Shown: positions 2,509-55,022 of the stretch, piece after piece
Numbering within the stretch: the stretch's first letter is position 1
How the letters are laid out: every line of letters starts with the position of its first letter
Made by a program: the position numbers and the translations under genes
NCBI GenBank assembly: GCA_030295235.1
Contig: AP026173.1
Location: 248,001-312,000, forward strand
DNA length: 64,000 nucleotides
Direction: 5' to 3'
Origin: Fistulifera solaris
Lineage: Eukaryota
Notes under the pieces: model-generated
What the model was told of the DNA's origin: nothing
Database searches by the model: none
Seen by the model: the letters and a program-made list of their open reading frames with translations, nothing else

Positions 2509-2909
2509 AACGAAGTGTTTGTTGGCAGTACGAATGAATCGATCCTTAAAAACGCTGTTACATTCTTGTATTGCTACAGAGATAGAAAGGTTAAGAATTC
2601 GAAGAAGCAAGTACGCCGTATCCATTTTAGTATTAGACCCTATGTTTGCAAAACAACGATCTGGCAATTCGATCGCAACCGTACGCAGTGCGTAAAGGAA
2701 TTCTATTCAAGCCATAGTTTTTTACGGACTCGATTTTCGCGGGACTGAAAAGTGATCAATGTCACTTCCAACGATCGTTTGGAGTCGTACTGGTACTAGT
2801 GGCGGCGCGGGTCTACACGATAACCATCGCACTGCGCTGTTGTTGCAATTCTTCATCATATTATCATTTGTATATATTGTACTCATTTTATCTCTTATCA
2901 TTCATCAAC

Positions 2910-5490: not shown

Positions 5491-5644
5491 GATACGGACT
5501 AATTACATGAATTACGAATCTTAGAATCCGTGTGACTTGTGCAAACTCTTTTTTTCTAATTATTTTTTCTTCTCACGACGAAATACATCTGCGTGTCTAG
5601 CTAGTAGCCATCCACACACACAAGCGCCTCAACGTCAGCAATTC

Positions 5645-7127: not shown

Positions 7128-7409
7128 TTACTGAGTTTGATGCAATCGTTCGTCGGGGATTATGCTGCGAACGTCACTGGCGAATCTCCAACTTGGGCAT
7201 TGGCTTAAGGTGGCGGTGTCCAAGTTATCCAGATAAATGCGTAGCTTTAAACTTCAAAAGCATAGAAAGCATTCCAAGAGGTGAGAAACACTTGTTTGCG
7301 CGAAAAGCGCAAAGGTGCAAGGTGTTTTGAAGTTCGTCAGCACCTTCGCATTCCAAACTAAGAAAAAGAGTACTTGTGTGACGCATCGTCGAGTCACCTC
7401 CATTCGTTT

Positions 7410-8820
7410 TTATCGCTTATTCCCACGCGAACGTCGTCCTTGCCCCGCCAATCCATGACCCCGTTGACCTTTGCTTCCACGCGGGAGAGCCCGTTTCAAC
7501 ACCAAACTGACACGGCCGCGACCATCTGCATCAGGATATACCGCATGATGAAAGTCATCGTTGCAGGTATCGTACATTTTCACAATATCTCCCGGAAACA
7601 AGCGAATGACTGCAGGTTCATTGTTGATTCCGTTCTTTTGTGACGTCCCTGCTTGCTGGTTCGTATCCCAATCTTCCCAGGATGTTTGAATCGGACGAAA
7701 GGCGAACCGCCGAGCATCGCCCGCTGCCACAACACAAGTCAGACGATCCCACATTGTACCTGAAACGAAAACAGTGTGAGCGGCGACACAAATGCAAAAG
7801 ATGACGACGACCGTAGCATTTACTCAACGCACCATGCTCCGGATCGGTATGAAATTTACAAGCCGATTCGCCGTATGGGTACCAATTGCACAGGGCACAA
7901 TCGAAGAAAGGACTCTCGGTTCGAAACATGGCGTGTTCGACTTGTCGCATGACATTTGTAACAGACGTTGGCAAAGGATGCGGTGCCATGAGTTTACCAC
8001 TGTACGCCAGGGCCCCGATTCCTTCCTCGGCGACCCACGCCGTGCCGCGCCGTTCTTGGACATTGGCACCGGTACGTGTAATAATGGTATCAAATTGAAA
8101 GGGAATGTCCTGTTGCCAGGCGGAGACGGACTGGAGATCAGAAACTCCGCAAGGGAGTATATCAAAGGGCAATCGCGAGACGCGCTGTTCGAGTTGCGGC
8201 ACTGCGAGACTCTGCAAAGAAGGTTGACTCGCCATGAGACCCCGCACCGCCCATCGCACTTCAATCGCCTCCTGCAACGGTATTGTCGCAGCTGTTTGTT
8301 CGGCGCGTTCTATTAACATATGAATCCCCGATATAATTTTACTTTCTGGAATTAAACCAATTTTGGGGTTCGTTCGCATCAGAGTATGCAAAGCTACCAA
8401 TGATTGCCGTAATGCTTGTGTTTCTTTGCGTGTGGGAGGAATCGTGTCATCGTACGGCATCGCAGCCGCTAAAACCTTCCTCTCCAAGGCTTCTTGATCA
8501 AACGTTTCATCGCACGGCGGCAACTCCATGAATCGCGTCAACCACTGCGCCGCCCATCGTTGTCGTTTTTCGTGGTGAACGTGCTGCGAACGAACATGAG
8601 GTGGCAAATTGTCGTCGGTCGGTAGCCATATTGATATAGACAAGAGATCATTTGTGGATTGCGCGTCTTGAATGGCTTGACCGATACTGGCGGCCGTTGT
8701 CGAGAATTGCAACGTCAAACACTGGGGTGATCGATGCTGCCGATGTGGAAGAAAGGCGTGGCTGCAGCCAAGCAAATAGGATGCTGTAACTGACAGAAAG
8801 ACCGGCAGCTTGTTTATCAT
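7410..8820 (-). CDS. AlkB-like 2OG-Fe(II) dioxygenase, probably plastid-targeted
   Basis: Signal peptide plus SHAF cleavage motif; CNWY...FHTD (HxD), distal FHHAV and RVSLVLKR (RxxxxxR-type); phase-1 intron near 7761-7831. Confidence 0.8.
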
Positions 8821-9404
8821 ACTAAGGTGGGTTTCATTCAGCCTAAAGAAGGTTCTTATTTTTTAGTTTGTTTTATAATACGAAGTTGAGTAGTCTTATG
8901 ATGTTTGGTTTGTTTTATGTTGCATCGCAGCATTATTTTTTTTCCCTTTGTTTTATATTTTATCGGCGTTTGCCGCATGCGTCTGGCCTTAGGCCGCTTC
9001 TTTAGTTTACTATGGCGGGGTGTGTAGGCGACCTTTTATCTCGCAACTGGATTTCAGTCACGCTATTGACGAACACTTACCTGTCGTACAGTTTATGAGA
9101 AGACGTTTTACTGTCATTCATCTTTTTTGTTGATGTTGACGAGATTTACTGAAGACCAATGTATGATTTTGCTTGCAGACCATTTCATACGAACATCTCC
9201 TTCGTTCGTACATTTAACTGAAAAAGAAAGGGAGGAGGTCCAGAGCTTCTTTGGTGAAGAAGCGACGACGTGCTTAATCAAGGATGACCACGAAGAGGAC
9301 GATGTCGGGCTTCTTTTTGATATGTTGTGACATTGAGTCATTCGGATTCAACAACACATGACTAATATATAATTACCTAAAAATACAACGTGTTTGTTTC
9401 CACT

Positions 9405-9652
9405 TTAAGGAATGGGAGAACATCCGGCCGCAATGCAAGAGACCATGCAGACACCGAGGGCCGAGTTGCAACCCACAATGGCGGCCGGAACTCCGGCACC
9501 GGCCGTGACGGTGCCAAAGACGGCTCCCGCGGAAGCATAACACGCTACCGCCACGGCATTGCATCCCGTCTGGCAAATGCCGTACGACAAGGTCCCGCCG
9601 ACACGGTGCTGGCGACCGCCGAGAGAAAGAGGGCTTTCGCTTTTAGATTCAT
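9405..9652 (-). CDS. Small secreted Cys-rich hydrophobic protein (zygote-specific class V-like family), copy 1
   Basis: After one frameshift correction: MNLKAKALFLSAVASTVSAG-PLSYGICQTGCNAVAVACYASAGAVFGTVTAGAGVPAAIVGCNSALGVCMVSCIAAGCSPIP. Confidence 0.75.
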
Positions 9653-10127
9653 GGTACATTTTGAATGATTGAAGAATGGATACGGTGTATGAATGATTTC
9701 GCGCACTTTTGTTTTATGCGCGATTGGTCAACAGGAAATGTGACGGATTCTCAATTTCGTGAAGGTGTCAAGGTGTTCGCAAAATAAGATGCCCTCATGT
9801 CACGGAAGTATGCTCTTATCTATTACTGCAACTGAAGAACGTGACACTTTGTCATGAAGGCATTTGAAGAAGCTGAAACACGACATTGGAAACGGACAAG
9901 TTGACATAAACAGAAACTCACGTCAATCGGTCTTGCAAAGGCCTGCTCATTTGTTTGGATAAACTTATTGAAAAGAGACCCATCAATTAAGCCAGGCAAG
10001 GATTGCTAGAGACCATCGACGGCTCTTCTACTGATGATAATATCTAGTAATCTTGAGCTGGCAGTCGTTTTCAATGAACTATATTATCATTATCAGTAAC
10101 GACTATCAATCGTAGAGCTTTCTTTTC

Positions 10128-10379
10128 TTAGGGAACCGGAGAAATTCCCGCCACCACACACGAGGCCATGCAACATCCGAGGGCCGTGTTGCAACCCACA
10201 ATGGCGGCCGGAATTCCGGCACCGGCGGTCACGGCACCAAAGACAAAGCCCGCCGAGGAATAACACGCCACGGCCATCCCGTTGCAACCCGATTGGCAGA
10301 TGCCGTACGACAAGAGCCCCGCCGAGGCCGAAGAGGTGGTGACCGCCAGGAGAAGGAGCGATTTTGGCGATAGTTTCAT
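10128..10379 (-). CDS. Small secreted Cys-rich hydrophobic protein (zygote-specific class V-like family), copy 2
   Basis: Signal peptide plus YGICQSGCNGMAVACYSSAGFVFGAVTAGAGIPAAIVGCNTALGCCMASC; closely similar to copy 1. Confidence 0.8.
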   Translation of the reverse strand: MKLSPKSLLLLAVTTSSASAGLLSYGICQSGCNGMAVACYSSAGFVFGAVTAGAGIPAAIVGCNTALGCCMASCVVAGISPVP

Positions 10380-10863
10380 GGTGTTTAGTTATGGAAGTGA
10401 AGGACGAAAGTAATCTCGAACACAATTTTATGTGCGAACTCTGATGATTACTCAACAAATTTGAAACGTTATCACTTTCGTGAAAAGATGCTTTCAAAGA
10501 TATCATAGCACGTCACGTTGGCATATTCTTTTTAATTAAGTAATAGAAATGGGAAGGTGACATTGCCTCACGAAGGCATAACGAAGATGTAACGCGACAA
10601 AGAGACGACTTAATTAAGAATAGCGCAAAGAAAAAGCCGTGACTTTCTTCAAAAATCAAAAGATTGTATCCCCTGCTCTCGTCTTTTAGGACATGAAGCG
10701 TCTATCCACGATAAATTCTAGCTAGAATGAAAGAAACGGTGTGGACCTCGACAAGGAACAAATTGACAATCGAAACTAAGTATAACGAAACATTTTTAGC
10801 TTAAAATTGTGTATTACATTTGGTTTCTCTATGACATAATTGTATAGTTTCTCGTTTCTTTCC

Positions 10864-13704
10864 TTACGCTTTGGTCGGTATCGACGCGTCCGGTGTTAAC
10901 GATTTCGAGCGGCTAAAGGCAACCGCTTGTTCCGCGCGGAACACTTGGCGAGCATTGCGTGAGCTTACACGTATCTGTAATGTCGGTAATATGACATTAT
11001 CAAGTGATTGTTTCGCCCGTATTCTTTCTTGGTATTGTTCCAAGATTTCTTCCCATGTTGTCATGGATGCTTTCGGTTGAGCTTCTCCCAAAATAACATT
11101 CTGGACTTCCGACTCGGATTTCGATTGCAATAGAAGATTCGCCACGCGCCGTTCCACTCCACCAATTTGTCGGCCGAGTGTCAAGACCGCAGCGTACAAG
11201 GTCCCGTCCACGACGAGATTCCGCCGTTCCAGTGAGTCCATGACGAATAGCAAAAAGCGAAAGCGCGTCTTGTCTTCCGTAGTTGCTTCTACGACAGAAG
11301 AGCGGAAGATTCCGAATGAATTCACTATGGTGTCAGTGATTTCTTTGCTGGGAATGTATCCCTTGAGTAAGAGATCAGTCAGCACTTGTCGAGCCAAATC
11401 GTAATCGTGCTTTTCCAAAGCGGCTCCTATGACATGTCGATAGGATCGCATGATAAGCTTTCCTGACATCAGTCGGGTTCCCCGTCTTTGATCACGCAAA
11501 ATGGATGCAGCTGCTTCCGGCTCGCCATTTCCGCAAAATGCTTGGATCCCCTGCGACATGGCATACCCATCGGGCTTCTCGATCTTTCGATAAACGCCCA
11601 CCGCCAAATCGTACTTTTGCGAGGCCAAACAAGCGCCCACCACAGACGTGAGTGTCTTCGTGTTAGGTTTGATTCCCACCGCGGTCATGCGCGACACCAA
11701 CTCCAGGGCACGTTCGTGATTTCCCAGCACGGCAGCCGCCGCAATCGCGGTGGTATAAAGGTGGACATTTTGAGTCAATCCAACTGTTTTGGTATTGGCG
11801 CAAGCGGATTCGAACAACGCCAAGCACGCGTTCGGCTTGTCGGCGCGCAGCATACCGTTCATCAAGATTCCGTAGGTCATCGCTTGCGGCGCGACGCCTT
11901 TTGTTTCCATTTCTTGAATCAATTTCGTAGCTTGAGACCATTCTCGATTTTCACTCAAATTTTGAATCATGGCGTTGTAAAAAACCACATCCATTGGGAT
12001 GTTGTATTCTTTCATATCGTAGAAAAGTTCTTGCAAATCCATATTGTTCTTGCATGACTTCATCAACGCATAATACGTGTACTTGTCGGGTCTTACTTTC
12101 GATCGTTTCATTTGATCAAACAGACGAAATGACTCGGTGAACTTCCCCGCCTTGACTAGAATATTCAAATACGTGTTGTAGGTGACAATATCGCGTTCTT
12201 TCATGCGCGCAAACACATCCGTCGCAAACTCGACCGCCCCGACGACTCCCAATTGATCGGCCGCCGCGAGTGCGACATTGTAACAGTACGTATCCAACTG
12301 AATGGAACCATACGCGCCCGTCCACGGCCACGGCGCCACTTCTTCCCCATCCACCGCGAGACCGGAACGTCCTTCCAAAGCCGCGAGAACTCGCTGTACC
12401 GCAGCGAGGTCTTGATTCTGGGCGTGTGCTTGCAACAACATGGTTCCCGTGTAGAGGTTCAACGCCGCATCGTTGGCTTGGAACGTCCGCGATGCATCGG
12501 GCAGTGGCGCCGAGGAGGCATCTCCACGAAACCCCGTCGACGCTTCAAACAATTGAATTGCTTTCAAAGGCTGTTCACACGACAAGTACGCGTGCATAAG
12601 CATGGCGAGTGTTTTCGCATCCATAGCCACCGACGCCGCCGATAACTTCTCCACAACTTTATCGGCCACCAATGCGGGTACCAAATCCAATTTGGAACGA
12701 ATGGACGCTTCTTTCGTACTGTATCGTTGCAGGACCTCGCGACATCGTTGGATGAGTTCTTTGTGATCGGTCGGAACATCTGTTGCGACAGTGTTGGTAG
12801 TGGCAGTCTTGGTGGCGGCGACGATGGGTTCTACGACCGCTCCGGGTTGCCGCTCAAAGCGCAACGTCACCGACTGACCCGGCAATCGTCCCGTGACGGC
12901 CGATATGACTCCTTCCACCGTCGAGACGGGCCACAATTTGTCACCCAACGATGTGTCGATGGCCAGCACGCGGTCTCCGACGCGCAACGCGTGTTGCACT
13001 AAATTGGGTGCGTTTGCCGCAATTTGCGAGACCAACACCATGCCATCGTTCGTTTCTTGTATTTGAAACCCGAGTGGTTTTTTGAGGGTCAATTCAAAGA
13101 CGTTGGTTTCGGTCAACTGCTCGACTTGCAGTCCGATGGACGTTGCGGCTTTCAGGGCGGAACGGACTCCTTGTAACGACACTTTGGGCCACCACCGGCC
13201 GTTGCCAGCCGATACGGACCGTACGACTTGACCTGGTCGCAGGCCTTGTTTCCAGGCCATTGACTCGGAATCGACATGTGACACGAGAATGCCGCGAAAG
13301 GTCGTATCCAACGGCCGTAACCAGGCTGGATCGAGGCGTGTTGTTGTGGTTGTTTTCGTAATTTGCAGTGACTGCAAATCGAGTTCACCGTTCAAGATGT
13401 TTCGTCCGGTATCAATCGCTACCAATCGTACATCTTGCGGCAAAGTGAATTGGAGACGGTGGATTTGCGGAATCGTACTTCGCGCTTGCAATTGTTTTTC
13501 AATCGCTTCTTGATCCATATCTTCTTCTTCCTGGGCAAACAAGTCATCATCGGGAACATAACTTTCCGAAAGTGTAGCCGATATTTGTCGTATCATGGCT
13601 TTTGGACGCATTCTAGGAGACGAGACCAAGGAAATGGGAAACGCATCACTCTCTAAGGACCGTATTACAAGTAACCCGTAGAGTGTTATGAAGGAAAGTC
13701 GCAT
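10864..13704 (-). CDS. PDZ-like plus pentatricopeptide repeat (PPR) protein, probably plastid-targeted
   Basis: 946-aa ORF; signal peptide ending SDAF-P; PDZ-like LKKPLGF...LRVGDRVLAI; multiple 35-aa PPR motifs (DIVTYNTYLNILVKAGKFTESFRLFDQMKRSKVRP). Confidence 0.85.
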   Translation of the reverse strand: MRLSFITLYGLLVIRSLESDAFPISLVSSPRMRPKAMIRQISATLSESYVPDDDLFAQEEEDMDQEAIEKQLQARSTIPQIHRLQFTLPQDVRLVAIDTGRNILNGELDLQSLQITKTTTTTRLDPAWLRPLDTTFRGILVSHVDSESMAWKQGLRPGQVVRSVSAGNGRWWPKVSLQGVRSALKAATSIGLQVEQLTETNVFELTLKKPLGFQIQETNDGMVLVSQIAANAPNLVQHALRVGDRVLAIDTSLGDKLWPVSTVEGVISAVTGRLPGQSVTLRFERQPGAVVEPIVAATKTATTNTVATDVPTDHKELIQRCREVLQRYSTKEASIRSKLDLVPALVADKVVEKLSAASVAMDAKTLAMLMHAYLSCEQPLKAIQLFEASTGFRGDASSAPLPDASRTFQANDAALNLYTGTMLLQAHAQNQDLAAVQRVLAALEGRSGLAVDGEEVAPWPWTGAYGSIQLDTYCYNVALAAADQLGVVGAVEFATDVFARMKERDIVTYNTYLNILVKAGKFTESFRLFDQMKRSKVRPDKYTYYALMKSCKNNMDLQELFYDMKEYNIPMDVVFYNAMIQNLSENREWSQATKLIQEMETKGVAPQAMTYGILMNGMLRADKPNACLALFESACANTKTVGLTQNVHLYTTAIAAAAVLGNHERALELVSRMTAVGIKPNTKTLTSVVGACLASQKYDLAVGVYRKIEKPDGYAMSQGIQAFCGNGEPEAAASILRDQRRGTRLMSGKLIMRSYRHVIGAALEKHDYDLARQVLTDLLLKGYIPSKEITDTIVNSFGIFRSSVVEATTEDKTRFRFLLFVMDSLERRNLVVDGTLYAAVLTLGRQIGGVERRVANLLLQSKSESEVQNVILGEAQPKASMTTWEEILEQYQERIRAKQSLDNVILPTLQIRVSSRNARQVFRAEQAVAFSRSKSLTPDASIPTKA

Positions 13705-14169: not shown

Positions 14170-14491
14170 ATGAGTGCCGAAGACGAACCCGAAACCTTGA
14201 CGATTCGCATTCGTGATCATGTAAGCATAACGAACAGATGCTCTAAGACAACAAATCATCGCTCACTCTTCTTAACAGAACGAAGAATAAACCTTTTTAA
14301 AATTAAAAAGACGACCAAGATGCAAAAAGTTTTTGAAACGGTACGCGACCCGCAAAGGATTACAGTACGAGAGCTTGCGATTCTTGTTGGATGGTGAACG
14401 GGTCCAGCCCGAGAATACCCCCAAAATGCTCGAATTGGAAGATCAAATTGATGTGGTGCTCGCACAAGTGGGTGGTTCTTGTTCATGGTGA
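14170..14491 (+). CDS. SUMO: SUMO paralog 1
   Basis: TLTIRIRD, intron 14221-14278, FKIKKTTKMQKVF...SLRFLLDGERV...TPKMLELEDQIDVVLAQVGG-SCSW; small indels. Confidence 0.85.
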
Positions 14492-14781
14492 AGAGCACAT
14501 TAAAAGTCAATACTACGTATATAATAGAAAGCTAGAGGCGTATTCTGTATTCTCTCGTTCATTTCCATTTTGATGCCAACGACTCTTTGGATCACGCTAC
14601 GACACTTTTCACTATGGCTGGCCATACAATAAAAAGTGTTATTGGCGGGAAATTTTTCCCGCACGCTCTGCGGCGAGACGCGGACGCAAAGAGCACCTAT
14701 CGTGTTGTGTCGTTGTTGTTACTTCTTTTCGTTGCTACATTATTTCTCTATCAAACTTTTCGTTCCTTTTATTCTTTCATC

Positions 14782-15119
14782 ATGAGCGGAGAAGACCAAC
14801 CGGAGACGTTGACGATTCGTATTCGTGATCAGGTAAGAATGGCAAAGACATCAGTATGCGGAGGTGCTCGATAAAGGACGGAGTCTCATCCTTTTCTCTT
14901 TTTGACAGGACGGTCAGGAAACCTTTTCAAGATCAAAAGACAACAAAGATGCGAAAAGTCTTTGAAAACTACGCTACCCGCAAAGGAGTGCAAATTTCCA
15001 GTTTGAGATTCTTGTTGGATGGAGAAATTGTCGACAACGACACGACACCCAAAATGCTTGAATTGGAAGACCAAGATCAAATTGATTGTATGCTCGCACA
15101 AACGGGTGGTAGCTTGTGA
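14782..15119 (+). CDS. SUMO: SUMO paralog 2
   Basis: MSGEDQPETLTIRIRDQ, intron 14833-14908, ...SLRFLLDGE...TPKMLELEDQDQIDCMLAQTGG-SL. Confidence 0.9.
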
Positions 15120-15456
15120 AACAATAATAGACTTTTTTCTTGATAAGGAGGATAACTTTGGCGATTTAAATACCTGGTACCTGGTATTAGTGACCTTTGC
15201 ACCAATTGCACAGAGCGCTTTGTTACGTCACAATCGTGATTCAATCTTGTACCGCTACGACGCTCCGGCGTCATTGTTCAACGAAGAAACTCCATGGACG
15301 CGATGATGGCGGGAAAATCCTTCTCGCGCTCTCCGTTTCGTTTGGCGGTCGATGACATTATTGTTTGTGCGCACCCTCAACTCATTGTTGTGATTGTTGC
15401 TTGCTTGACTCATTCCCTATCCATTTCATTCTCTTTTTTGTTTGCGACTCATCATC

Positions 15457-15796
15457 ATGAGTGGAGACGACGAACCCAATCCGGACGCCTTGACGATTCG
15501 TATTCGAGATCAGGTAAGAAAGAACGATCTTTGGTGTGAAGCGGTTCGAAAGGAAACGAGTCGACATCTTACTATTAATTTATAGCAAGGAGAAGAGACC
15601 TTTTCAAGATCAAAAAGACGACCAAGATGCAAAAGTATTTGAAACTTACGCGACCCGCAAGGGATTGCAGATTGCGAGCTTGCGATTCTTGTTGGATGGA
15701 GAACGAGTGGAACCGACCAGTACCCCGAAAATGCTCGAATTGGAAGATCAAGATCAGATTGATTGCATGTTGGAACAGGCGGGTGGGTTCATGTGA
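15457..15796 (+). CDS. SUMO: SUMO paralog 3
   Basis: MSGDDEPNPDALTIRIRDQ, intron 15514-15585, ...SLRFLLDGERVEPTSTPKMLELEDQDQIDCMLEQAGG-FM. Confidence 0.9.
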
Positions 15797-15959
15797 CAAA
15801 GAAGAATCACGTGAATGCAAAACAAGATGGGAAGTTCCACGGAGACTGCATGATTGCCATTTTCCCTAACTCAAAACAACATGATCGTATTAGATAGCGC
15901 GCTTGTTGAGTTCTCCATGTCAATTATCTTTCTCAAAATTAGTCTATCTTGCACTATTA

Positions 15960-16392
15960 TTAGCGATACGCCAGAGGCGGTCGACTGGGACGACGGAAAC
16001 TATGGTACAAACTCGTGGCGGCGATCGACACGAGAGCACCCGTCACGTATCGTACGATCAATTCGTGATGGATTTCGGGAAAGTGATAATCCCAGGCACG
16101 TAAAAATCGTCGGATCTGGAATTCGAGACTGGCGCGTTCCGTCGTTTGCTCCAAAGTTCGAACTTGTCGTTGCAGCCTGAAGAGTGATTAAAGAATCGAG
16201 CGTGAGAAGCGTGAACAAGTTGCATAAAAACATCCACAAAGCATGAGCAACGCACCAAGTGGACTCTCCCGCACCACGTCCAGGGACCGTTAGATCCACC
16301 AAGAATTGAATGAGCTTATCGACGACTGCCGTGGGGCTAATTTCACAAACCGTATACCAAAAGGTAATCTGTCCTACGACCAAGACATCCAT
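15960..16392 (-). CDS. Unknown ~115-aa protein, tandem copy 1
   Basis: Exon 1 MDVLVVGQITFWY...GESTW, GT-AG intron, exon 2 LQRQVRTLEQTTERASLEFQIRRFLRAWDYHFPEIHHELIVRYVTGALVSIAATSLYHSFRRP; conserved with copy 2. Confidence 0.65.
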
Positions 16393-16733
16393 GTTTGGTT
16401 ACGTGTCGAAGCTATTGGATGAAAAGAACTTTTGAATGAATCATCATTAGTGCAGGATTGCACGAAAACATCGAAGGAGAGCAGCAACACGATGACAAGA
16501 ACACGCGAGGAAGAGGAAAAAGGATCCCGAATGCATTTGCAACACGTTGTCGTACAGGTTCCATGATTAAAGGTAACAGGGTACCAATCTGACTTTTAGA
16601 CGGATAGTCCACGGATGCCTTTTTCTTAGCCTCTGCATGGCCGTAAACGACTAAAGATAGAAGATAGATAGCGCACTTGTTGATTTCTGTATTTCAGCTA
16701 TCTTGTTACAAGTCAAATTAGGTTGTACTACGA

Positions 16734-17151
16734 TTAGTAATACCCCGGAGGCGGCCGACGACGGAAACTGTTGTACAAACTCGTGGCCGCCACCGACACG
16801 AGCGCACCCGCTACATACCGTACAATCAATTCGTGATGAATTTCGGGATACCGATGATCCCAGGAACGCAAATTCCGTCGAATATCCAATTCGCGACTGC
16901 TGCGTTCAGTTGTTTGTTCCAAAGTACGCACTTGTCGTAATAGCCTAAAGACTGAATGGAGTGAGAATAAGACCAATTTGACATCCAACGAAGAAAAGCA
17001 TCGATACAACGCACCAATTGGATCCTCCCGTACCACGTCCAGGGATTGTTAGATCCAGCCAGAACTCAATGAGCTTATCGACGACGGTTGTGGGGCTAAT
17101 CTCGTACACTGTATACCAAAAGGCAATCTGCCCTACTACCCAACTGTCCAT
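16734..17151 (-). CDS. Unknown ~115-aa protein, tandem copy 2
   Basis: MDSWVVGQIAFWY...GGSNW / LLRQVRTLEQTTERSSRELDIRRNLRSWDHRYPEIHHELIVRYVAGALVSVAATSLYNSFRRRPPPGYY; same intron position as copy 1. Confidence 0.65.
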
Positions 17152-17814
17152 TTTCGACTACGTTTCAAAAATTACTGAAGAAAAGGGCTTGGGGAAGGAG
17201 AATAAAAAATCACGGCAGGATTATTGCATGAAACATTGAATGAAATCATTTGCACGATGAACGCAACACGCGAGCGAGGACGAGAAAAGAGAAAAGCAAG
17301 AGAACGACAAATGCAATAAAACAATTTCATGTGTCGTACAGGTAAACATACTAGGTGGGTAGGTACCAGTCGGACTTATGGGAATTGATGTTTCCTCCAT
17401 GGGAGGGTTTCTACTTACTCCTAACCTTATGATGTTTCCTCCACACTCCACACTCCACAGTCCACAGTCCACAGTCATTTTTGTGGCCTAGAAAACAGTG
17501 CAACTACATTATTTCCACAGTTCGAGTACCGTTTCCACCGGTCACTCGACAATAACGTAGAGCAAAAGGGCCTACAGTGTCCAGCGTGCTCGAAGCGTGC
17601 GGCTTATTGCATTTATTTGTGCAACAACGAAGTGAGTGACAATGATCAAGTGAGGTGAAATGGCTGGATGATGTCTTCAGCGTTAATGATTTGAAAACCA
17701 ATCGTTTCTTTTCTCTTGACTCTCCAACACGAAAACAGCATTTGCGATCCACATGCGCGTATAGCATTCGAAAACAACTACTGTAAAACAGCAATAAAGA
17801 AAGAGTTCGCAATC

Positions 17815-44535: not shown

Positions 44536-46230
44536 ATGGACGATTTCTGCGGAATGTGAGTTGTTGGCGCTGTAAATTTCCGTATGGTGTCTGTCTCGCT
44601 TTTAACATGTCTACCGTGTTCTTCCGTTTCGTACAGCAACTTCTGTGGCAACACAGCCGATGTTTTGGGTACCGCTGGACAAGAAGTAGAAGAGTCGTGT
44701 TTAAAAGATGACGAAGCTCTCGCAAAAAGAACGAACGCCGGTGACCTTGTTTCGGTGGCGCTGCACAATGACCTACATTTGACAGAACAAGATGTCGAAG
44801 CCGCGCAACACAACCCTAACAAACGATCCGAGAGTCAGATAGAACAAGTGGAAGACGATTTGAGTCAAAGAGTCAAATCTACCGCGGAGATTGTCGCACG
44901 AACCAGCATCGAAGGCCTAAAATATATCGTGTCCCTTGCCTTGCTCGGCTTTTCCATGGTCCTCATTACCGCGGCTATGTTCACGGAACAAACGACGGCT
45001 ACTGCTGAGAATGGTATTCATCCTGCCGTCACGTTCTGTGTCTTTTCGTTCCTCATTGTCTGGCTCGCCATGATGGAAGGAGGACAAGGTTGTTTGGTCG
45101 GATTGCAAACAATTGACAAAACATTATACGCCGAGTCGCATCCTCGAGCATTTCGGACCGCAAAATTGGCACATAAGGGAGACAACATGGAAAGATTCAT
45201 GGTGGGTCGCCAATTTTTGGTGGTTCTCGTCATTTTCGTGATGAACATGATGTCGTCGACGGTCGAACAAGCCAGTGTGTTCAGTTTGCCGGAAAGCGTG
45301 GTCGGTGTCTTTCTCGACTCTGGAATTGCCGTCATATTGACTACCGTCATAGTGGGTCAATTAACATCGCAAGTGAATGCCGCCCAATGCATGCTGGATT
45401 TCATCAACAATTCGTTCATGACGTTTACCGTCTACGCCTCGTTGGCCATTGAAATGTCTGGGCTGTTGCATTCGGTATACTTAATAAGTATGCTCTTTTC
45501 CATGATATCGAGAAAACCGATCTCATCGAATGAATCGGATCGCACCAATCTACAAAAGTTGTTCTTTTGGATTCGGATTGTATTCTCTGTGGTGATTCTC
45601 GTCGCCGCCTTTGTCTTTACTCTGGGCGCTTTATTCTCGGGCAAGACCATGGCATGGGGTGGTATGCCGAGTGCTGTATCCGTGGCAATTTTCTTTCTTC
45701 TCATGTGCTTTGCGGGTCTTTTGGACGGTCTCCAAATTGCTTTATTCGCCGTGGTGAATTTGACCGAATCCGAACGGACCGCTCACCCCTTGGCGCATCG
45801 AAGTTGTCAGTTGGTGTTCCGAGAACCGCATACATTGGGTGCCTTTTTGATTGGACGTCAAATCTGTGTGACCGTGTGCATGTTCGTGGTGGCGCGTCTT
45901 TCGGCCATTCAGGTCGACGACACCGAGACTCTCTTTGGCGTCAGTGACGGCGTCCAACAATTCCTCAATACGGGCTTGTTGGGAGCTGTCTTAACGACGA
46001 TTGTGGCCTCGTTAATATGGCGCGTCATCGCTTCGGCATTCCCAGTTGCGTTTTTGTCGAATCCTTTGGTGTTTGTGATCATTCGACTGTGTTTGCTCCT
46101 GGAACAATCGGGAATCTGTTCAGCCTCTTGGACGTTGGCCAGTCTGCAAAAGAAACTGTTTGGTTTTCGTCCCGACGACGAGTATTTGGGTGATTTACGA
46201 CGCAAAGAAAGTACTTGCAGTAATTCATAA
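44536..46230 (+). CDS. SIT: Silicon (silicic acid) transporter
   Basis: About 10 TM helices; GXQ motifs MEGGQ, GRQF, DGLQ and GRQI; CMLD motif; probable short first exon with intron 44556-44636. Confidence 0.93.
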
Positions 46231-46370
46231 ACTTGTGGGTCCTGAACATAGTAGAAGTTGATGATAGAACATGGCAATGCTTCGCCTAGAATGCAACAGG
46301 CACGCTCGCACCTAGCACGGAAGGTGAGACGTCGCACTGGTGTCTGACTCATTCGTCTGTAAATTACTGG

Positions 46371-46458
46371 CGAAATAACCGAGTGTAGTACAGACGGGGA
46401 AGCCTCCGTGGTAGATGTAACACTTGTAGTCATAATTTTACACCACTGCCTTATTTCG
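46371..46458 (+). repeat. 5' LTR (88 bp, CGAAATAA...TTATTTCG)
   Basis: Identical to 53086-53173; preceded by CTGG at 46367-46370. Confidence 0.92.
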
Positions 46459-47315
46459 GGTTAAAAACCGGGGTTTCGCGATGAATCCCTCTGAAACGAT
46501 GAAATACACAGGAAAACAATGGTAATATCGTAAGAGTAATGTTCCTTATGTATGTGTTACTAACTGTTGGGCTTGAGTGGTCAAGGAGATGGTCTCGGCG
46601 TTGTCGGAAGTCGACAATTGTCCACATGAAAATGTGAGATCATGACCTTATGTATAGGTCGACCCCATGGAGTCATCATGTTAATCATATGTCTTGATTA
46701 GATAGCTGGGTTTGTGAGGTAATTAGCTTATGAAGCACCGTTGCTTTCCTTTATTGACAGTTCTGGCTCTGTCGATGGATGCATCGGACCACAGTGATTA
46801 TGTCACTTGTCGGGTAAAATATGGGGGACGCCGATACATGCTAATACACCTTTAATGCTAGAATACATAAATGAGTGAATAATTCACCCGATTGTTTCAA
46901 GTCCTCATGGTGGAGGGATGTTTTTCCTCCAGAGGCGGTCAAAGCACAACATCGTCGGATTTCGCGAGAAGTTGCGCAAGTGAAATCGTGTTGTGCGTGT
47001 ATTTTGGCCTGTCCGAGGTCGTGTTCTATACTGTTTAGGCCGATCTGTTTTTTGACTATGAACGGATTCAAAGCTAAATGAGGGTGTGGACGATTGTTCT
47101 GTAGGGCCTAGTGTGTACAATGGCCTTACGTACATAAGGGCACTTTTGACGCTTTACACTGGAGTTCCCTACAGTAAACAACACTCTCGGCGGGGAGAGT
47201 AAAGGGGTCGGAATTTCGTGCAAACGTTATGCACAAAAGAAAAAGAAACGCCGCTTCGCTTTTATCTCCCTCGCATTCCGATTTGTGAACTTTCTCTCCT
47301 TTCTCCTTGTTTACG

Positions 47316-50300
47316 ATGGCAGCCAATCTTGCTGCATTCAACAACTACCTCCGTGATGTCCTCTTTATTGAGGACGCTGGCAGCTCGTCAGGCCATCAAT
47401 GGCCAAGGCATTACCAGCGTTTGACGACTTGACGCACCGGAGTGATAAGTACGCTCAGGAGATCTTTACGAAGATTCGAAACCCTGGGGGTTTGATTCCA
47501 AACCCAGCCTTTGTCCCTCCTGCGGTTGGAGCGGAGGCTGCACCGATGGTACCTGCGATGATTCCGAACCGTGGTATTGCGATCGGAGTCAATCTTGAGC
47601 TCCGTGTTCGTCAGCTTCGCTACTTCCTTTTCCACTTGCACCGCTTGCAGCGCGAAGTTTGTTCCTGGCTTTGCAACTCTTGCTCGATTGGAACGCGCTT
47701 GGACTTTGGCGTGAGCGCATTCGTCGATGCGTGAGACCAACAAAGATCTTCCTAAGATCGATGTGTTGTTGAAGGTGGAAAACGCTTCGGAAGACGATTG
47801 AAGACATCGACGAGGTACTTGGCAATCACCTTGGAGCTTATGGTGCGCCTTTGTCATACCTTGTGCGGGAGCATGTCGATCCCGATGGAATCGAAGGGGT
47901 TGATGATCCAGGTTTCGGTGTCCCTGATGCTATGTCGGAACTTGTTCATCGTGACTCGCCATGATGGAGACCAGTATGAAGAAGACAATATGATGCTGTG
48001 GAGCGTTATTCGTCAGGTTTCACACGGTGGACCAGCTTGGAATTGGGTTAAGCCTTTTGCTTACAGCAAGGATGGACGCCGCTTATTTTGCCTTGAAGAC
48101 TCACTATATGGGGCGTTCTTATCAGAAGCGCAACATTGCTCATGCCGACCGAGTCCTTTTGACAGTCTTCTATGATGGAAAGGCGCGTAACTTCACCTTT
48201 GAAGACTACTGTCAGAAGCTTAACTTGGCTTTCTTGGACTTGGAAGAGGCGGGTGAGGTGATGACTGAAGATAGGAAGGTACGAATCTTTCTAGACAACA
48301 TCTGGGCAGATGAACTAAAGATGAGCGTCGAGCGTCCGGGCTGATGCTGTGTTGGAAAGTACCTTCGAAAACGCGATGAACTACTTGGCTGACCAGGTTG
48401 ATAGAAAGAAGCAAGATGCAGCAAAGACCCGTGGTTCCACTCGCAACATTTCTTCGGTTACCAGAAATTCTGGCGGCGGTAACAACAAGAAAGGTGGCGG
48501 CAAATCTGGTAAAGGAAAGGGCGGAAAAGCAAAGAGAGGCAAAGATGGTGTCCCGTACTACAAATGGAAGGACTGGATCAAGTTACCGAAAGAGAAACAG
48601 GAAGAAGTTCGCAATGCTCGTGAAAGGGCTAAGTCTGAGACGCGAAATGCTTCAGCTGTTGAGACGGCTGACTCCGATAGTGACGATGTGGTTGAGTCGA
48701 CAGGTAACCGCATGAGTCGACGACCTTGACTGGCGGTGCAGCGAGTTCGCGGCGGCAATGCGACAACAGACTCCTGGTAGAGCTGAATTGGACTCGCACT
48801 GTGATACTTGCTCGTTCGGTAAAGACGCCGGTTCTCGTGTATGATACCGGCGAAACAGTTTCGGTGGAACCATTCATTAGTTCTCTTGGGAAAGTGACCA
48901 AAGTTCCCATTGGTACAGTTGCGGTTGCATACGATTGCCCCACGACGCTGCAAACCCACGTTTTGTTCTTTCACCAGTCACTCTACTTTTCAAACATGCA
49001 TCGACACTTGATCAGCCCCGCTCAACCGGCACAACCAAGTCGTTGTGAATGAAACTCCTCTCCTACACCTACCTCCCGGAACAACGTCGCCCGGAGAGCC
49101 ATTCTATTTTGTTTTCTGAGCCAGCTCTCCAGATTCCTTTGAAACTGATGGGGACTATTTCATATTTCCCCACTCGCCGACCGACCGACAAAGAACTGAG
49201 CTCGGACGTTGACTGCATCCATGTAAACGTCACCTCCGAAGTCGTTCTGGGATCCTATGGATTCTAACCACGCGCATGATGAGGACTCATTGCGTGTTTC
49301 CCTTGACTCTGAGCTTCGTTTTAGGGGGACAGAGGATGCTTGGTTCGGTTACGAGTGAGCGCACGTTTGTCCCGCCAGCTCGTTCGATTGCTGTGATTTC
49401 AGCTGAGCGGTTCGGCAGCTTTTGACATCGATTCGTATGCTGCTTCACAAGTGCCGCAATCTCAACGAAGAACCGGAAAGCATATGTCACACCCGAAGAT
49501 TTGGCAAAACAATGGAGTATAGGGATCGAGACGGCTAGGCGAACGCTCCAGCGAACGACGCAACGGGCAATTCGGGACTTCTCGACAGTCTCTGGAACGC
49601 TGCCGTCTCAAACCATTTGGCGTACCAGCTGCGTTATCCTTGGCTTAATACGGAGATGTACTGCGACATTCTGGTCGGTACATGTGTCTCACTGCTGGGT
49701 AACAAATATGCGGCTGTGTATTGCACCCCCTTTCACTGGATATGTGTGGACCCGATTGAAAAGAAAAGCGATGCCCATTACACGCTTGACAACTTGTTTC
49801 GTCCGCCGTCGGGAGTCCCTCACACTTTAATTCCAGACAATGCCGGAGAGTTGACAGCAGGAGAGTTTAAGCGAAGCGCTTAACGAGTGCAAGCGACCAT
49901 TAGGCCGATCGAAGCACACACGCCCAACGCCAACCCTCGCTGAAGACGGCATTCGTGAATTGAAAAGGATGTATAGGCGTGCTATGATTCGCACAAATTC
50001 CCCACGTTGTCTATGGGACCTATGTTTGGTCTACCACGCTGTATGTTCGGAGCCACTCTTGTCTTCGATAAGACAGTTAGATGGTGAAGTGCCGCAGACG
50101 CTTTTGACAGGGGACACCGCTGATATTTCACACATTTGTGAGTTCGGTTGGTATGATTGGGTTTGGTTTATCTCGCCTCAAGACGAAAATATGGAAAGGA
50201 AGCATCTTGGAAGATACCTTGGTCCCAGTTTCGATGTCGGTGATGTCCTATGTGCTAGGATCCTACCCGCTTCTGGTCGACCGATTTCCCGTACAAGTGT

Positions 50301-52784
50301 TTTCCCTTTGTCAGTTGAGGAACAGAATAGCCAAGCCGTTGCTGAGTTGAAGGCAAAGTTCACGCAGACGTTGGAGCAAAAGCTGAAGGACCGAGCCATG
50401 CCCTTGGATCCGACCGAGATACCGGAAGACGAGCGCACCCCAGAGTTGGAATACTATGTTCGACCGAGTCGCAAGATCCCGAAGTTCCCGAGATTAAGGA
50501 AGCTGATGAGTTTGATTACGATTCATACAATCAATATATCTCAGCAAGGGTAATGCTTCCGCAAGGGGACTCGATGTCGACGGTACGGTTAAAGGTCGGA
50601 AGCACGATCAAGACGGGAATCCTATTGGCCGGTACCATCCTAACCCTTTGCTCCGACACCGCTCTGTATGAGATTGAATTTGATACGGGTGAAGTGGAGG
50701 CTTATCATGCGAATCAGATCGCTGAAGCCATCTATGCCGAAGTCGATGACCATGGGCGTGCGAAGTTATGTCCTAAAGGAAATAGTGGACTACAAGAAAG
50801 AGTCGACGCGGTTCCGCATGAAGAGGCATTCGTGATCCACAACGACCGAAAGTATCCTAAGCGGACTACCAAGGGATGGAAACTGTGTTGTCTATGGAAT
50901 GATGGCACTACTACTTGGGAGAAATTGAAAGACCTAAAGCAGTCTCACCCTATACAGTTAGCGGAATTTGCTGTTGCGAGACAGATTGCTGAGGAGCCTG
51001 CTTTCTCATGGTGGGTTCCCTACACGCTCAAGAGAAGGACCAGGATCATCAAAGCGATGGCTAAGCGCTACTTTCGTGTTACTCAGAAATATGGAATCGC
51101 GTTGCCAAAGACAGTCGAAGAAGCATTGGCGATTGATCGCGCTACGGGAACTGACTTTTGGGCGAAGGCGAGAAGAGATGCGGCGGTAGCTAAGGCGTTT
51201 CAGATCCTTGACGAAGACGCCTCCCGATCCTGCTGGTTTTACCAAGATTGGGGTTCACATGGTTTTTGATATAAAACCAGATTTCACACGGAAGGCCCGC
51301 CTCGTAGCAGGGGGGACACATGACGGATCCGCCGAGCTCGATTACCTATGCTAGTGTTGTATCGAGAGAAAGCGTGCGGATTGCCTTCCTACTAGCGGCA
51401 TTGAACGATTTGGACATTATGGCGGCAGATATTGGAAATGCGTACTTGAATGCACCAGTTCGAGAACGAATCTTTATTATTTGCGGTGCCGAATTTGGTC
51501 CACAGTTCAAAGGTCGAAAGGCGAAAATCGTGAAAGCTCTTTACCGGACTGAAGAGTTCTGGAGCTGCGTGGAGGTCGTATCTGAGTGAGTGTTTGCATG
51601 AGTCGTTGAGTTTTACACCTTGTCGAAGCCGGATAACGATGTATGGATACGGCCGGCACAGAAAGCGGATGGGGCTAGTTACTACGAGTTGGTATTGGTC
51701 TATACGGATGACATCCTGTGTGTTTCTGCGGCGCCGGAAGCTATTCTATACAAGCTTGATCAACACTTTCTTCTGAAAGAAGGTTCGATAGGCAAGCCAA
51801 CTCGCTACTTGGGTTCGACAATTGGTCAGCATCAATTCCCGGGTGATGAAAAGCCTTGTTGGTCGATGAGTTCGAATGAATATGTGAAGGAAGCAATACG
51901 AAACGTTTGTCTTTGGTTGGAAAAGCGAGATGAGGCTTTACCGAAGAAGGCGTCAAGTGTTTTACCACCGAAGTACCGTCCGGAGCTTGACATATCGCCG
52001 GGAGTGCGATGACGACGAAATCCAGTTTTATCACTCGCAGATAGGGGTTTTACGCTGGATGGTCGAGCTTGGAAGAGTTGATATTTGTGGTGAAGTTTCG
52101 ATGCTTGCGTCTCACAGTGCGATGCCAAGGAAAGGCCATCTAGCTGCGGTTGTGCATGTCTTTGCATATTTGAAGTCACATGAAAGGTCTAAGATTGTGT
52201 TCGATCCTTCGTATGTCGAGCACGCCAGACAACCTAGACCTGATTGGAACGACTTTTACCGAGATGCTAAGCCTATGATTCCAACGGATTGTCCAAAGCC
52301 ATTGGGTAAGCCTGTGCAAATAACGTGTTTCGTTGATGCTGACTTGGCGGGTGACCATGTTACTCGTCGTTCCCGTACAGGTGTCTTGATCTATTTGAAC
52401 AGGTCATTGACAGTATGGTACAGCAAGAAGCAAACTTCGATTGAGACGTCGACATTTGGTGCTGAGTTTAGTGCTATGAAAACGGCGGTCGAGTTAATCG
52501 AAGGTCTACGGTACAAACTACAGATGATGGGTGTTCCGGTAGAAGATCCTGCGGTTGTCAAAGGTGACAATATGTCGGTGATCAAGAACTCGAGTATTCC
52601 TGAATCAGTTCTGAAGAAGAAGTCCAATTCGGTGGCATATCACTATGTAATGCGTGAGCGAGTTGCGATGGGTATCGTTGATGTATCCTACGAGCCTACG
52701 AAGACGAATTTGGCAGATATTCTGACGAAGATTCAAGCTGGGAATGTACGAGATCCACTGGTGAAGCGTATTTTACATCAGTGA
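47316..52784 (+). CDS. gag-pol of the copia element (many small indels)
   Basis: gag GGPAWNWVK..DGR..YFAL; protease RAELDSHCDTC; integrase D..GVPHTLIPDNAGE..AEDGIRELK; RT YASVVSRESVRI, ADIGNAYLNA and YTDD; RNase H FVDADLAGD..TRRSRTG, KKQTSIETSTFGAEF. Confidence 0.9.
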
Positions 52785-53085
52785 TGCAGGCGATAGGTCC
52801 CGATGCACTGGTTGGGTAGTTATGTTTACTATTCCGATGGGATGAGCCTCCTGGGGATAAGTTTTTCGTCCAGGTACAGTGATTGAAGTTTCAAGTTTGA
52901 TACGTGGTTTTGACGTATTTTCCACGGACAAGTCGATGTGTGGTTTTGATGTATTTTCCACATGATGAAGGATGGATTCGATGAATGAATCGTCATGGTT
53001 TTTATGTTGTTTTTCCATGAAATAAGGGTTTATCGGTTATGAAGGACACGTTGAAGCCCTAGCTCGGGTCTCATCGTGAGGGGAC

Positions 53086-53173
53086 CGAAATAACCGAGTG
53101 TAGTACAGACGGGGAAGCCTCCGTGGTAGATGTAACACTTGTAGTCATAATTTTACACCACTGCCTTATTTCG
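53086..53173 (+). repeat. 3' LTR (88 bp)
   Basis: Identical to the 5' LTR; preceded by purine tract GAGGGGA(C) at 53078-53085; followed by CTGG at 53174-53177. Confidence 0.92.
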
Positions 53174-53281
53174 CTGGAGTATTTGCAAAAAACTTATTAG
53201 ACCTCTTCGACACTTTTTTCGACCATGATGAAACTATTCACAGAAGTCGTATAACCATCTCCATCCATAGTCAACAATACG

Positions 53282-55022
53282 ATGTACCGAATTATAGGAG
53301 CATTAAAGTCGTTTCCCAATCGTGTGGGGAATCTCGATCTCGGCAGGAAATCCGACAATTACGGCCAGGAATGGCCGTCCACGATGCTGTTGTATCGCCT
53401 CGTCTTTTTTGGAGAAATTCACAGTCGGCCGGAAATTGTTCAACGACAGGAAGACGTGTTACAGCAAATGATTGCCACGGGCGATTCGGTGCACGTCATT
53501 ATGGAGCATTTTTCGTTGGATATGCAACAATTGTTAGATGATTATACACAAGGCCGGTGTTCGTTTGAAGAGTTAATCCAACAGTATCAAGACATTGGAA
53601 CCGAAGGTCATGATTTAAAACCGTACGAGTCGTTCTTGGAGAAAACACGACAATCTTCTTCGGTGTTCTTACATGCCGGATTCTTGTCTCGCACCTATGC
53701 ACGCCAGTTGATGAAAGAAGGGGAAGCGGCCGCCTTACAAAGTGCGCGTCTGTGGTTACCGCCAGACACCACGCAATTACAGGGCAATGAATTTCATTAC
53801 AATATTTTTGAAAGTATGATTACGGGACGAAATTTGGCGGAAGATGCGCCGTCCGATACGTTCCGTGGTATTTTTCAAGCGCAATTGTTGAAAGACGTCG
53901 CCATGGCGCATAAAATCAATACAATCATTGAAGGACATCCCAACGATCGGTTTCTGGTACTCGCAGGAAATGGTCACGTATCGCATTATCAAGGTGTTCC
54001 CGAGCGTGTTTTGGCACAACATCCGGATTTGATTCCGCAATCGTGCCTCATTGTGTCTCGTGTATGGAACGAAACGACCCTCATATCGGACGCCGCCGCA
54101 GTACAAATCGTATCATCCTCGTACGAAAATGCTGCGGATTATGTCTTGGCTTATCAAGAAAGAAAGACAGAAGATGCAGTGAAACAGGACGTGGCGGAAA
54201 TGTACAATCAAGTGGGCGACACAGCCCATCTGGAAGGAAATTTGATGCGAGCGCGCGCCATTTTGAAGTACTTGGAGTATACCGACGAAGACATTGCGGT
54301 GGCCGGTCGTGACGCCTACAATTATCAAGGTGTCGGGAATCCGCATAAGCATGCCCAAATTCAGCCGGGAGAGCGTGTCTTGGATGTTGGTTCTGGATTA
54401 GGTGTGGATAGTTTCATTGCCGCACATCGTACCGGTCCACACGGTCGAGTGATTGGCATCGATCTCAGTCACAGTGAAGTGGAACACGCCAATCGTCGAG
54501 CTCTATCCCGAGAGATGAAGCATCTGGAATTTATGGTCGCCGATATGGAACATATACCATTGCCCGATGCTTCGATGGATGTCATTGTATCGAATGGTGC
54601 GTTTTGTCTCGCGCCGAACAAGAAAAAAGGCCTTTGCCGAATTGTTCCGTGTTTTGCGGCCCGGTGGGAGAATCGCCATTTGTACATCGACGCTTCGATC
54701 CAAGCAACTGCCCGAAGGTATCCAGTGGCCTCTCTGTATGGAAATGTTCATTGCCAAAGACCAGTTGGAACCGATGTGTTCGGAATTGGGCTTTGAAAAT
54801 ATTGTAATCGATGACAGCCATTCGAAAATGGTCTACGAATTACCCGAAGAAGAGGAAACAAGTACTTTAAATCCGGATCGACATCGGGTTCATGGCAACA
54901 ATCCCGCGTTTCGGCATTTAGAAGAATTCAATATGAATGAACTTTGTGCTCGAGTTTGCGTCGTTGCAAAGAAACCATTGGGAGACGATGACGTACAGTC
55001 GGAACAGCAAGATGCATTGTAA
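53282..55022 (+). CDS. ChaN-like (haem-uptake/Tiki superfamily) domain fused to ArsM-like SAM-dependent methyltransferase
   Basis: N-terminal half LVFFGEIHS..MEHF..Q.LLDDY..AQLLKDVAMA..LAGNGHVSH..GVPER; C-terminal half GVGNP..IQPGERVLDVGSGLGVD..GRVIGIDLS..DVIVSNG..FRVLRPGGR; one frameshift in an A-run near 54625. Confidence 0.75.

Follow-up and report, generated by a model that had tools for sequence, protein, structure and literature searches.

What kind of element can end in CG on both sides, carry terminal repeats of only 88 nt and have multiplied in its host is the question raised by a 6.8-kb insertion in contig AP026173.1, within the stretch of 64,000 nt analysed here at its full length (the window). 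Positions 46371-53173 very probably represent a single insertion of a multi-copy Ty1/copia-type long terminal repeat (LTR) retrotransposon with CG...CG ends, belonging to a CoDi-like group of diatom elements. A preliminary description made from the letters of the window had proposed a copia element of this kind, and its structural observations, namely identical 88-bp repeats with inverse ends, CTGG on the outer flanks and sharp borders of identity, were all reproduced.

The two direct repeats are identical at 88 of 88 nt, with a start-to-start spacing of 6715 nt and a within-window blastn E of 2.6e-43. The sequence on all four sides of them is dissimilar: ...ACTGG lies ahead of the 5' repeat and GGTTAAAA behind it, ...GGGGAC ahead of the 3' repeat and CTGGAG behind it, and identity ends at the repeat borders. 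Each LTR bears a perfect 8-nt terminal inverted repeat (start CGAAATAA, end TTATTTCG), such that the ends are CG...CG and not TG...CA, and CTGG abuts both outer borders as a 4-bp duplication, which at this one copy lies inside the 4-6 bp range given for LTR elements. By the arithmetic applied here, a 4-nt flank match would arise by chance in 1 of 256 cases and an 8-nt terminal inverted repeat in 1 of 65,536. The inverted repeat reaches one base further into the interior, with a C before the 3' LTR and a G after the 5' LTR; this is perhaps what one trimmed base per end would leave, and would occur by chance in 1 of 4 cases. Neither a third copy of the 88-mer nor a second copy of the interior was found within the 64-kb window. 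The insertion occupies a spacer of about 244 bp between two host genes, about 140 bp past one stop codon and about 105 bp ahead of the next start codon.

The family to which this copy belongs becomes apparent in the public sequencing runs, for which the Logan contigs of four runs (X1, X2, X3 and X5) were compared with the window. Contig depth, which does not equal copy number, is about 55-74 in the element bins of X1 against about 18-23 in its flank bins, and about 200-220 against about 40 in X2, with the LTR-holding bins the deepest of all (77 and 86 in X1; 339 and 327 in X2). From these depths the element is taken to be multi-copy, with LTRs more numerous than interiors. Contigs diverge from the window directly after 46458 in X1 and, in two contigs of X2, directly after 53173, with further divergence points 1-6 nt later (46459 in X5, 53175 in X1 and 53179 in X2); the variety of sequences that follow ...TTATTTCG speaks for the 3' end of the LTR as a feature of the family. 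Other contig ends, near 53112 and 46436, are by the present reckoning consistent with de Bruijn branch points lying within a few bases of the inner LTR borders. At the X2 loose end of 53179 the LTR is followed by CTGGAG, the first 6 bases of the flank, and then by the unrelated sequence CCAAGTCC..., and may come from a variant form of the locus, from another insertion at a target of like sequence, or from a preference for such targets. Searches of viral contigs with the RNase H protein or a 37-nt LTR word gave no match, nor did a search of genome contigs with a 28-nt LTR word, and a scan of metagenomes returned 62 loci with best-segment identities of 38-66%, none of them of this family.

The same runs contain a form of the locus that is free of the element. 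A contig of X1 (depth 11.3) joins 46363 to 53206 with 21 other letters between (ATTTGCAAAAGAATCATCGAG), and a contig of X2 (depth 16.7) joins 46363 to 53251. Both skip the whole 6.8 kb plus both 88-mers, at about half of the depth of the flanks; the insertion is hemizygous or limited to one of two diverged chromosome sets. Since these joining contigs skip the element together with both 88-mers, the 88-mer did not pre-exist in the element-free form. The spacer is far more diverged between the two forms than the coding flanks are. Fistulifera solaris is described as allodiploid (PMC13276009, PMC5935921), and the element-free form may be the homoeologous locus if the host is F. solaris or a relative. 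These contigs also bear on the idea that a repeat consensus was misplaced between two genes by the assembly and that there is no insertion at this locus, for which the sharply different sequence quality of element and flanks might be cited. Such an artefact is highly improbable given that the CTGG duplication is exact, that the X2 loose end runs from the LTR into CTGGAG, and that the depth of the element-free form is no more than roughly half that of the flanks (11.3 of about 18-23 in X1; 16.7 of about 41 in X2), leaving a second, non-bridging form to be accounted for.

The interior is a copia-type gag-pol, as had been proposed, in short open frames of the plus strand that switch from frame to frame. 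The pol order is putative protease, integrase, chromodomain-like module, reverse transcriptase and putative RNase H. The integrase precedes the reverse transcriptase in the window as it does in the relative P0001, and the RNase H region closes pol, an arrangement of Ty1/copia type. The RVT_2 piece of the window stays below the cut-off of 31.6 bits because its reading frame is broken; in relatives with an intact frame (P0001, P0002 and P0005) residues 832-1033 reach 55-63 bits (P0001 58 bits, P0002 55 bits), and in P0001 the match spans residues 832-1028 with the integrase fold upstream at 291-579. For the last open frame (51888-52781, 298 aa), 1568 homologues were found at E <= 0.001 in proteins 523-2000 aa long; P0001, P0002 and P0004 are the closest, with 81-88% identity and lengths of 1346-1348 aa. 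By its position and motif the end of this frame is assigned as a putative RNase H, and the start of pol as a candidate protease by its motif only. The gag-like region has a basic, G/K-rich stretch, and within it neither a CCHC knuckle nor a Pfam match was seen. The closest named protein is P0121, a partial hypothetical protein of F. solaris, with more distant named relatives in Seminavis robusta and Cylindrotheca fusiformis, and the Atlas clusters nearest to the integrase part and to the downstream gene, which serve as leads only, are mostly of Bacillariophyta; the diatom lineage put forward in the preliminary description is accordingly probable, the likely host being a raphid pennate species near Fistulifera.

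The identity of the integrase was settled by its fold, because Pfam rve stayed below significance in the relatives of the window element and a profile search against the sequences of the PDB reached only E 0.06-0.28, to the integrase of mouse mammary tumour virus (MMTV). An AlphaFold model of the 317-aa relative P0126, which corresponds to P0001 residues 291-579, was obtained from a 50-row alignment with a predicted local distance difference test (pLDDT) score of 87.5, and matches the integrases of prototype foamy virus (PFV), simian T-lymphotropic virus (STLV), MMTV and Rous sarcoma virus (RSV) with Foldseek E of 1e-10 to 1e-7. The window retains the invariant columns D20, D76 and E111 of the P0126 alignment, in the motifs MYCD, PDNAGE and LAED. 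The chromodomain-like module is predicted from the locus L008, which is about 55% identical to the window in that stretch and whose model has a pLDDT of 75-88 in residues 91-180 only. Chromo and chromoshadow domains, including those of HP1, Chp1, Rhino, Polycomb and CHD proteins, take 22 of the 24 best rows in VIA at Z 5.0-6.3, a range that is commonly seen, and a small Tudor/SH3-like barrel precedes the chromodomain-like fold in the L008 stretch. Foldseek returned nothing for this module at E <= 0.001, and in Pfam there were only sub-threshold matches to Tudor_2/DUF7141.

Table. Features of the retrotransposon insertion, in window coordinates, with the evidence on which each is placed.
Feature	Position	Strand	Evidence
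Target-site duplication, left, CTGG	46367..46370	+	Read directly; same as 53174-53177
5' LTR, 88 nt, 5'-CG...CG-3', 8-nt terminal inverted repeat	46371..46458	+	100% identical to 53086-53173; contigs of other runs diverge right behind 46458
Leader / 5' untranslated region	46459..47315	+	Primer-binding site expected from 46459 (GGTTAAAAACCGGGG...); P0121 gene model begins at 47316
gag-like region, several frames	47316..48729	+	Alternating frames of 47316-48702 align with P0121 residues 1-401; stop codon 48727-48729
pol start, putative protease, DTGE motif	48758..49100	+	P0001 residues 1-105 align at 87-93% identity
Integrase catalytic core and C-terminal small barrel	49600..50480	+	49620-50460 aligns with P0001 residues 295-573
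Chromodomain-like module between integrase and reverse transcriptase (predicted)	50750..50990 (approximate)	+	Model of the homologous stretch L008:3458-4201
Reverse transcriptase, copia type, RVT_2	51172..52000	+	Window piece 51320-51589, RVT_2 E 1.2e-4, 22.2 bits; P0001 mapping
Putative RNase H and pol end, one open frame	52005..52784	+	P0001 residues 1089-1346 at 75-93% identity; stop 52782-52784
Polypurine-like tract GTGAGGGGAC	53076..53085	+	Read directly; adjoins 3' LTR; short, last base C
3' LTR, 88 nt	53086..53173	+	Identity to 5' LTR; two contigs of run X2 diverge right behind 53173
Target-site duplication, right, CTGG	53174..53177	+	Read directly

The ends of related elements bear on whether CG...CG is the true terminus. 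Few of the 62 metagenome loci contain both LTRs, and a dedicated scan for upstream and downstream repeat pairs found none in 15 loci of at least 5 kb. The LTRs of L023 are 201 nt long (TATTA...CATAT) and show no clear duplication; those of L049 and L051 are about 215 nt long, start with TG and end in ...CTA, as compared between one 5' and one 3' copy. From these alignments, non-CA 3' ends seem to be common in the clade of the window element, each case resting on two copies. A 75-nt repeat of L017, considered as a short LTR, was rejected as a truncated copy of an L023-like 201-nt LTR. Directly ahead of the LTR start TG, L049 and L051 have ...GCGTGGAC, and L053 has ...TGGGGGAC ahead of TA, where the LTR start is expected, such that a tract ending in GGAC is common to these three loci and the window element. 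Because this tract also precedes the LTR start in the relatives, 53086 is supported as the start of U3, and the comparison suggests that the first LTR base may differ from family to family.

It might nevertheless be argued that the terminal bases of this copy are mutated or mis-delimited and that the family is canonical, with TG...CA ends and a 5-bp duplication. Just one copy is seen with both flanks, and since L049 and L051 start with TG after the same GGAC tract, the first C could be a T-to-C change. No shifted border yields a 5-bp duplication, however: the borders as drawn give ACTGG and CTGGA, and moving the border one base inward gives CTGGC and GCTGG, a mismatch. Both LTRs of the copy have the same ends, which reverse transcription regenerates from a single template, the CG belongs to the 8-nt inverted repeat at either end, contigs of other runs break at the identical 3' end, and the relatives likewise have no 3' CA (...CTA in L049 and L051, ...AT in L023). 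Canonical ends for this family are thus quite unlikely.

Two further features of the relatives were recorded. The word TAGTCATAA(T/C)TT lies near the 3' part of the LTR in the window (53146-53158) and recurs there, or where an LTR would be expected, in L049 (102 and 6389), L051 (3588) and L053 (866), in families that are only 40-53% identical in RNase H; a conserved motif of the core promoter or an initiator is one possible explanation. The locus L010 repeats itself over positions 1-11246 with a period of 6671 nt (1-4572 = 6672-11243, 98.8%), and represents a related copia element that was assembled either in tandem or along a circular path through one LTR.

If the insertion is to be read as recent, as the preliminary description proposed on the grounds of its identical LTRs, the state of its reading frames has to be explained. 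There are about 20 frame jumps in gag-pol, or about one per 200 nt. Aligned with P0001, the pol of the window shifts frame at 16 of the 19 junctions between ungapped pieces, and 13 of these 16 are +1 modulo 3 (10 exactly +1). Aligned with P0121, gag-pol shifts frame at 17 of 18 junctions, of which 13 are +1 modulo 3, nine being exactly +1, that is, one extra base in the window. P0121 is itself open across most of the jump sites, and identity to the window reaches 98% or more in 10 of its 22 ungapped pieces. The last 1.17 kb or so of the element (52005-53173) has no frame jump and one in-frame 3-nt difference only, and flank contigs from the public runs (about 1.4 kb) have 0 differences from the window. 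The high-depth element contigs of X1-X3 depart from the window at 64 indel places, and among the 12 displayed 8 are one extra window base; in the longest element piece, the 3.1-kb record 12 of X2, there are 32 gap letters and 21 other letters. Long-read assemblies are prone to retain single-base insertions in repeats that short reads could not polish, and the jumps probably, if by no means assuredly, represent uncorrected insertions of this type within the repeat rather than real decay.

The competing account takes the roughly 20 frameshifts as real and the copy as truly defective, either an old insertion in which chance or gene conversion has kept the short LTRs identical, or a copy that, though dead, was mobilised in trans by active relatives. 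This reading is the less likely one, put clearly below an even chance. The sequence as given does shift frame about every 200 nt of gag-pol, two 88-nt repeats can by simple arithmetic remain identical by chance up to about 1-2% divergence, and contig sets lose rare variants, so that failure to find the variants of the window in X1 and X2 (word share 0.66-0.67) is no disproof. Set against these points, the 64 indel places rival or exceed the substitutions in the best contigs, and the jumps are biased to one extra base and are missing from the flanks and from the last 1.17 kb. Ordinary decay is not known for a bias to one extra base. Whether or not the jumps are real, open-frame copies exist in the family. 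As to recent activity, 88 identical nt are a weak means of dating an insertion, and the copy in its assembled form cannot encode its proteins.

Several findings weigh against reading the insertion as one copy of a multi-copy, CG-ended copia family with a 4-bp duplication. Both flanks are visible for one copy only, and the 4-bp duplication thus has n = 1; the 4-bp staggered cut proposed earlier agrees with CTGG on both sides of this copy, and 4 bp would, by extension, be the duplication length of the whole family. No junction of another copy at the 5' end occurs among the loose ends displayed (8 more are not displayed). In the element-free form, the absence of the element is seen but a single CTGG is not: this form is also without 10 nt around the target (TTACTGGAGT), the next 20-odd bases are different, and gaps of 83-99 nt lie near the joint, just past the upstream stop codon (46230 to 46314 or 46330). 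The empty site anticipated by the preliminary description is accordingly confirmed as a form without the 88-mer, in a family that is multi-copy, and not as a clean single target. Among the DNA loci found, no family member is more than 66% identical in RNase H. A primer-binding site was not found next to the 5' LTR: no TGG directly follows this LTR; there are no transfer RNA (tRNA) genes within the 64-kb window and one doubtful tRNA across 30 relative loci; the leader has no complementarity of at least 6 nt to the LTR for self-priming, and folding of the LTR together with the leader gave no improvement over shuffled sequences (z -0.57); and the 15-nt word behind the 5' LTR occurs in relatives solely within coding sequence, with no conserved leader word. 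A half-tRNA primer like that of Drosophila copia, with a Lys(UUU)-like loop, was considered and not retained. Both the start and the end of the transcript would have to fall within 88 nt, and no RNA run was among the public runs listed as containing the sequence. Finally, this copy could be dead or non-autonomous if its frame jumps are real.

An ordinary LTR cycle would most likely account for the anatomy described. A transcript would start in the 5' LTR and end in the 3' LTR, minus-strand synthesis would be primed beside 46459, plus-strand priming at ...GAGGGGAC would set the start of U3, and two strand transfers would regenerate the identical 88-nt LTRs. The integrase, of retroviral DDE type, would then join ...CG-3' ends, with a final G and not A, to target phosphates 4 bp apart, one base perhaps being trimmed before joining, and the chromodomain-like module may steer the choice of target. 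The repeats, the duplication, the domain order, the depth of the family, the element-free form and the repeated 3' junctions are observed directly; a preference of the integrase for CG ends, and the enzymology in general, we infer from them.

The rules from which this element departs are less strict than had been assumed at the outset, namely that such elements almost always end in TG...CA and that copia duplications are usually 5 bp. TG/CA is absent in 3 of 26 CoDi families (CoDi3.2, 4.2 and 4.3), the Blackbeard element has a 4-bp duplication (TTCC) and a 163-bp LTR that works as a promoter (PMC2806351), and duplications of 4-6 bp are normal for LTR elements (10.1101/137141). CoDi elements are reported with LTRs of 153-844 bp, total lengths of 5182-8062 bp, LTR pairs that are 94-100% identical, terminal inverted repeats of up to 8 nt (CoDi2.2) and haplotype-specific insertions (PMC2806351). 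The window element resembles CoDi and Blackbeard in its probable diatom host, its copia domain order, its length of 6.8 kb and its short LTRs, but its 88-nt LTR falls under the shortest of 153 bp reported there (PMC2806351). Within this group, the CoDi-A clade of GyDB is described as having copia integrases with a C-terminal chromodomain (PMC2774666); a chromodomain-like fold likewise follows the integrase in the clade of the window element, at the middling Z given above and in the model of a relative, and from this predicted domain alone the element probably belongs to a chromodomain clade of CoDi-A type.

Unusual termini are also found outside of the diatoms. Seven non-TGCA motif types are reported from plants, mostly in copia elements, with an invariable first T (for example, Tos17 TG..GA, AtRE1 TA..TA and TARE1 TA..CA), and the LTRs of these copia elements average 272 bp as opposed to 911 bp for canonical ones and lie near genes (10.1101/137141). 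The window element is similar in its copia type, short LTRs and gene-proximal site, but its first base is C where theirs is T, and no plant example named in that source ends in G. Errantiviruses of the Zam/gypsy clade also have ends other than TG...CA (AGTTA...TAATT/TAACT; PMC3601003). They differ by their Ty3/gypsy order, long LTRs and insect hosts. A 4-bp duplication is known from gypsy, and the Mag element of Bombyx is said to have an LTR of 77 bp. The integrase shares with those of PFV, STLV, MMTV and RSV the fold of catalytic core and C-terminal barrel and the conserved D, D and E, but at 11-16% sequence identity, and the end joined here would be CG where retroviral integrases are held to require a 3' CA (10.1101/137141). 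No description of an 88-nt LTR, a first-position C or a joined 3' G was found in the parts of the literature covered, to which the supplement of PMC2806351, listing CoDi ends, may add cases of CG ends or shorter LTRs, and no account of retrotransposon ends in Fistulifera was present among the matches listed. Each oddity taken as a class (non-TG/CA ends, a 4-bp duplication and a chromodomain clade) has a precedent, making this an unusual member of the known diatom CoDi group; what still sets it apart is an LTR of 88 nt that begins with C, together with a joined 3' end that finishes in G.

In the neighbouring sequence, the downstream gene (53282-54796, plus strand) is similar to diatom proteins in which a haem-binding ChaN/Cofac_haem_bdg domain is fused to an arsenite-type methyltransferase. 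Its open frame in the window measures 504 aa as opposed to 618-620 aa in Atlas clusters, with a tail that looks like read-through, so that an intron or a frame error may lie close to the 3' end. Diverged repeats in several families, arranged in tandem or dispersed, lie at 14179-17190, 9405-10319 and 3879-4388, with units spaced 610-770 nt apart at 61-86% identity and, at 3879-4388, units of 51-101 nt; in all probability these represent duplicated genes or coding modules that occur repeatedly.

A wider and more tentative reading, which is regarded as rather doubtful, is that a chromodomain-bearing clade of diatom copia elements has dropped the 3'-CA rule, its integrases taking family-specific ends (CG...CG here; TG...TA and TA...AT in the metagenomic relatives), with an 88-nt LTR that either holds promoter, R and polyadenylation signal or is combined with unconventional priming and strand transfer, the latter being considered because a primer-binding site is not visible. 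The CA at the 3' end is among the most conserved of the transposition signals in the DNA of retroviruses and LTR elements, and the known tolerance of retroviral-type integrases would be broadened by a family whose copies spread with CG at the end, a 4-bp stagger and an LTR of 88 nt. Such a family would likewise test the least sequence able to act as promoter, repeat and termination signal and, if the reading is true, would offer a natural system for how integrases read DNA ends and for the minimum size of an LTR. The assembly's repeats appear rich in single-base insertions, and frameshifted copies of transposable elements should not be taken as dead unchecked. LTR finders that use a TG/CA motif or a 100-bp minimum LTR miss such families, a consequence already foreseen in the preliminary description and borne out by a diatom study that, in its described procedure, ran LTR_finder with the latter setting (PMC8147415). 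The loads of transposable elements in diatoms, and the counts of those considered active, may therefore be too low.

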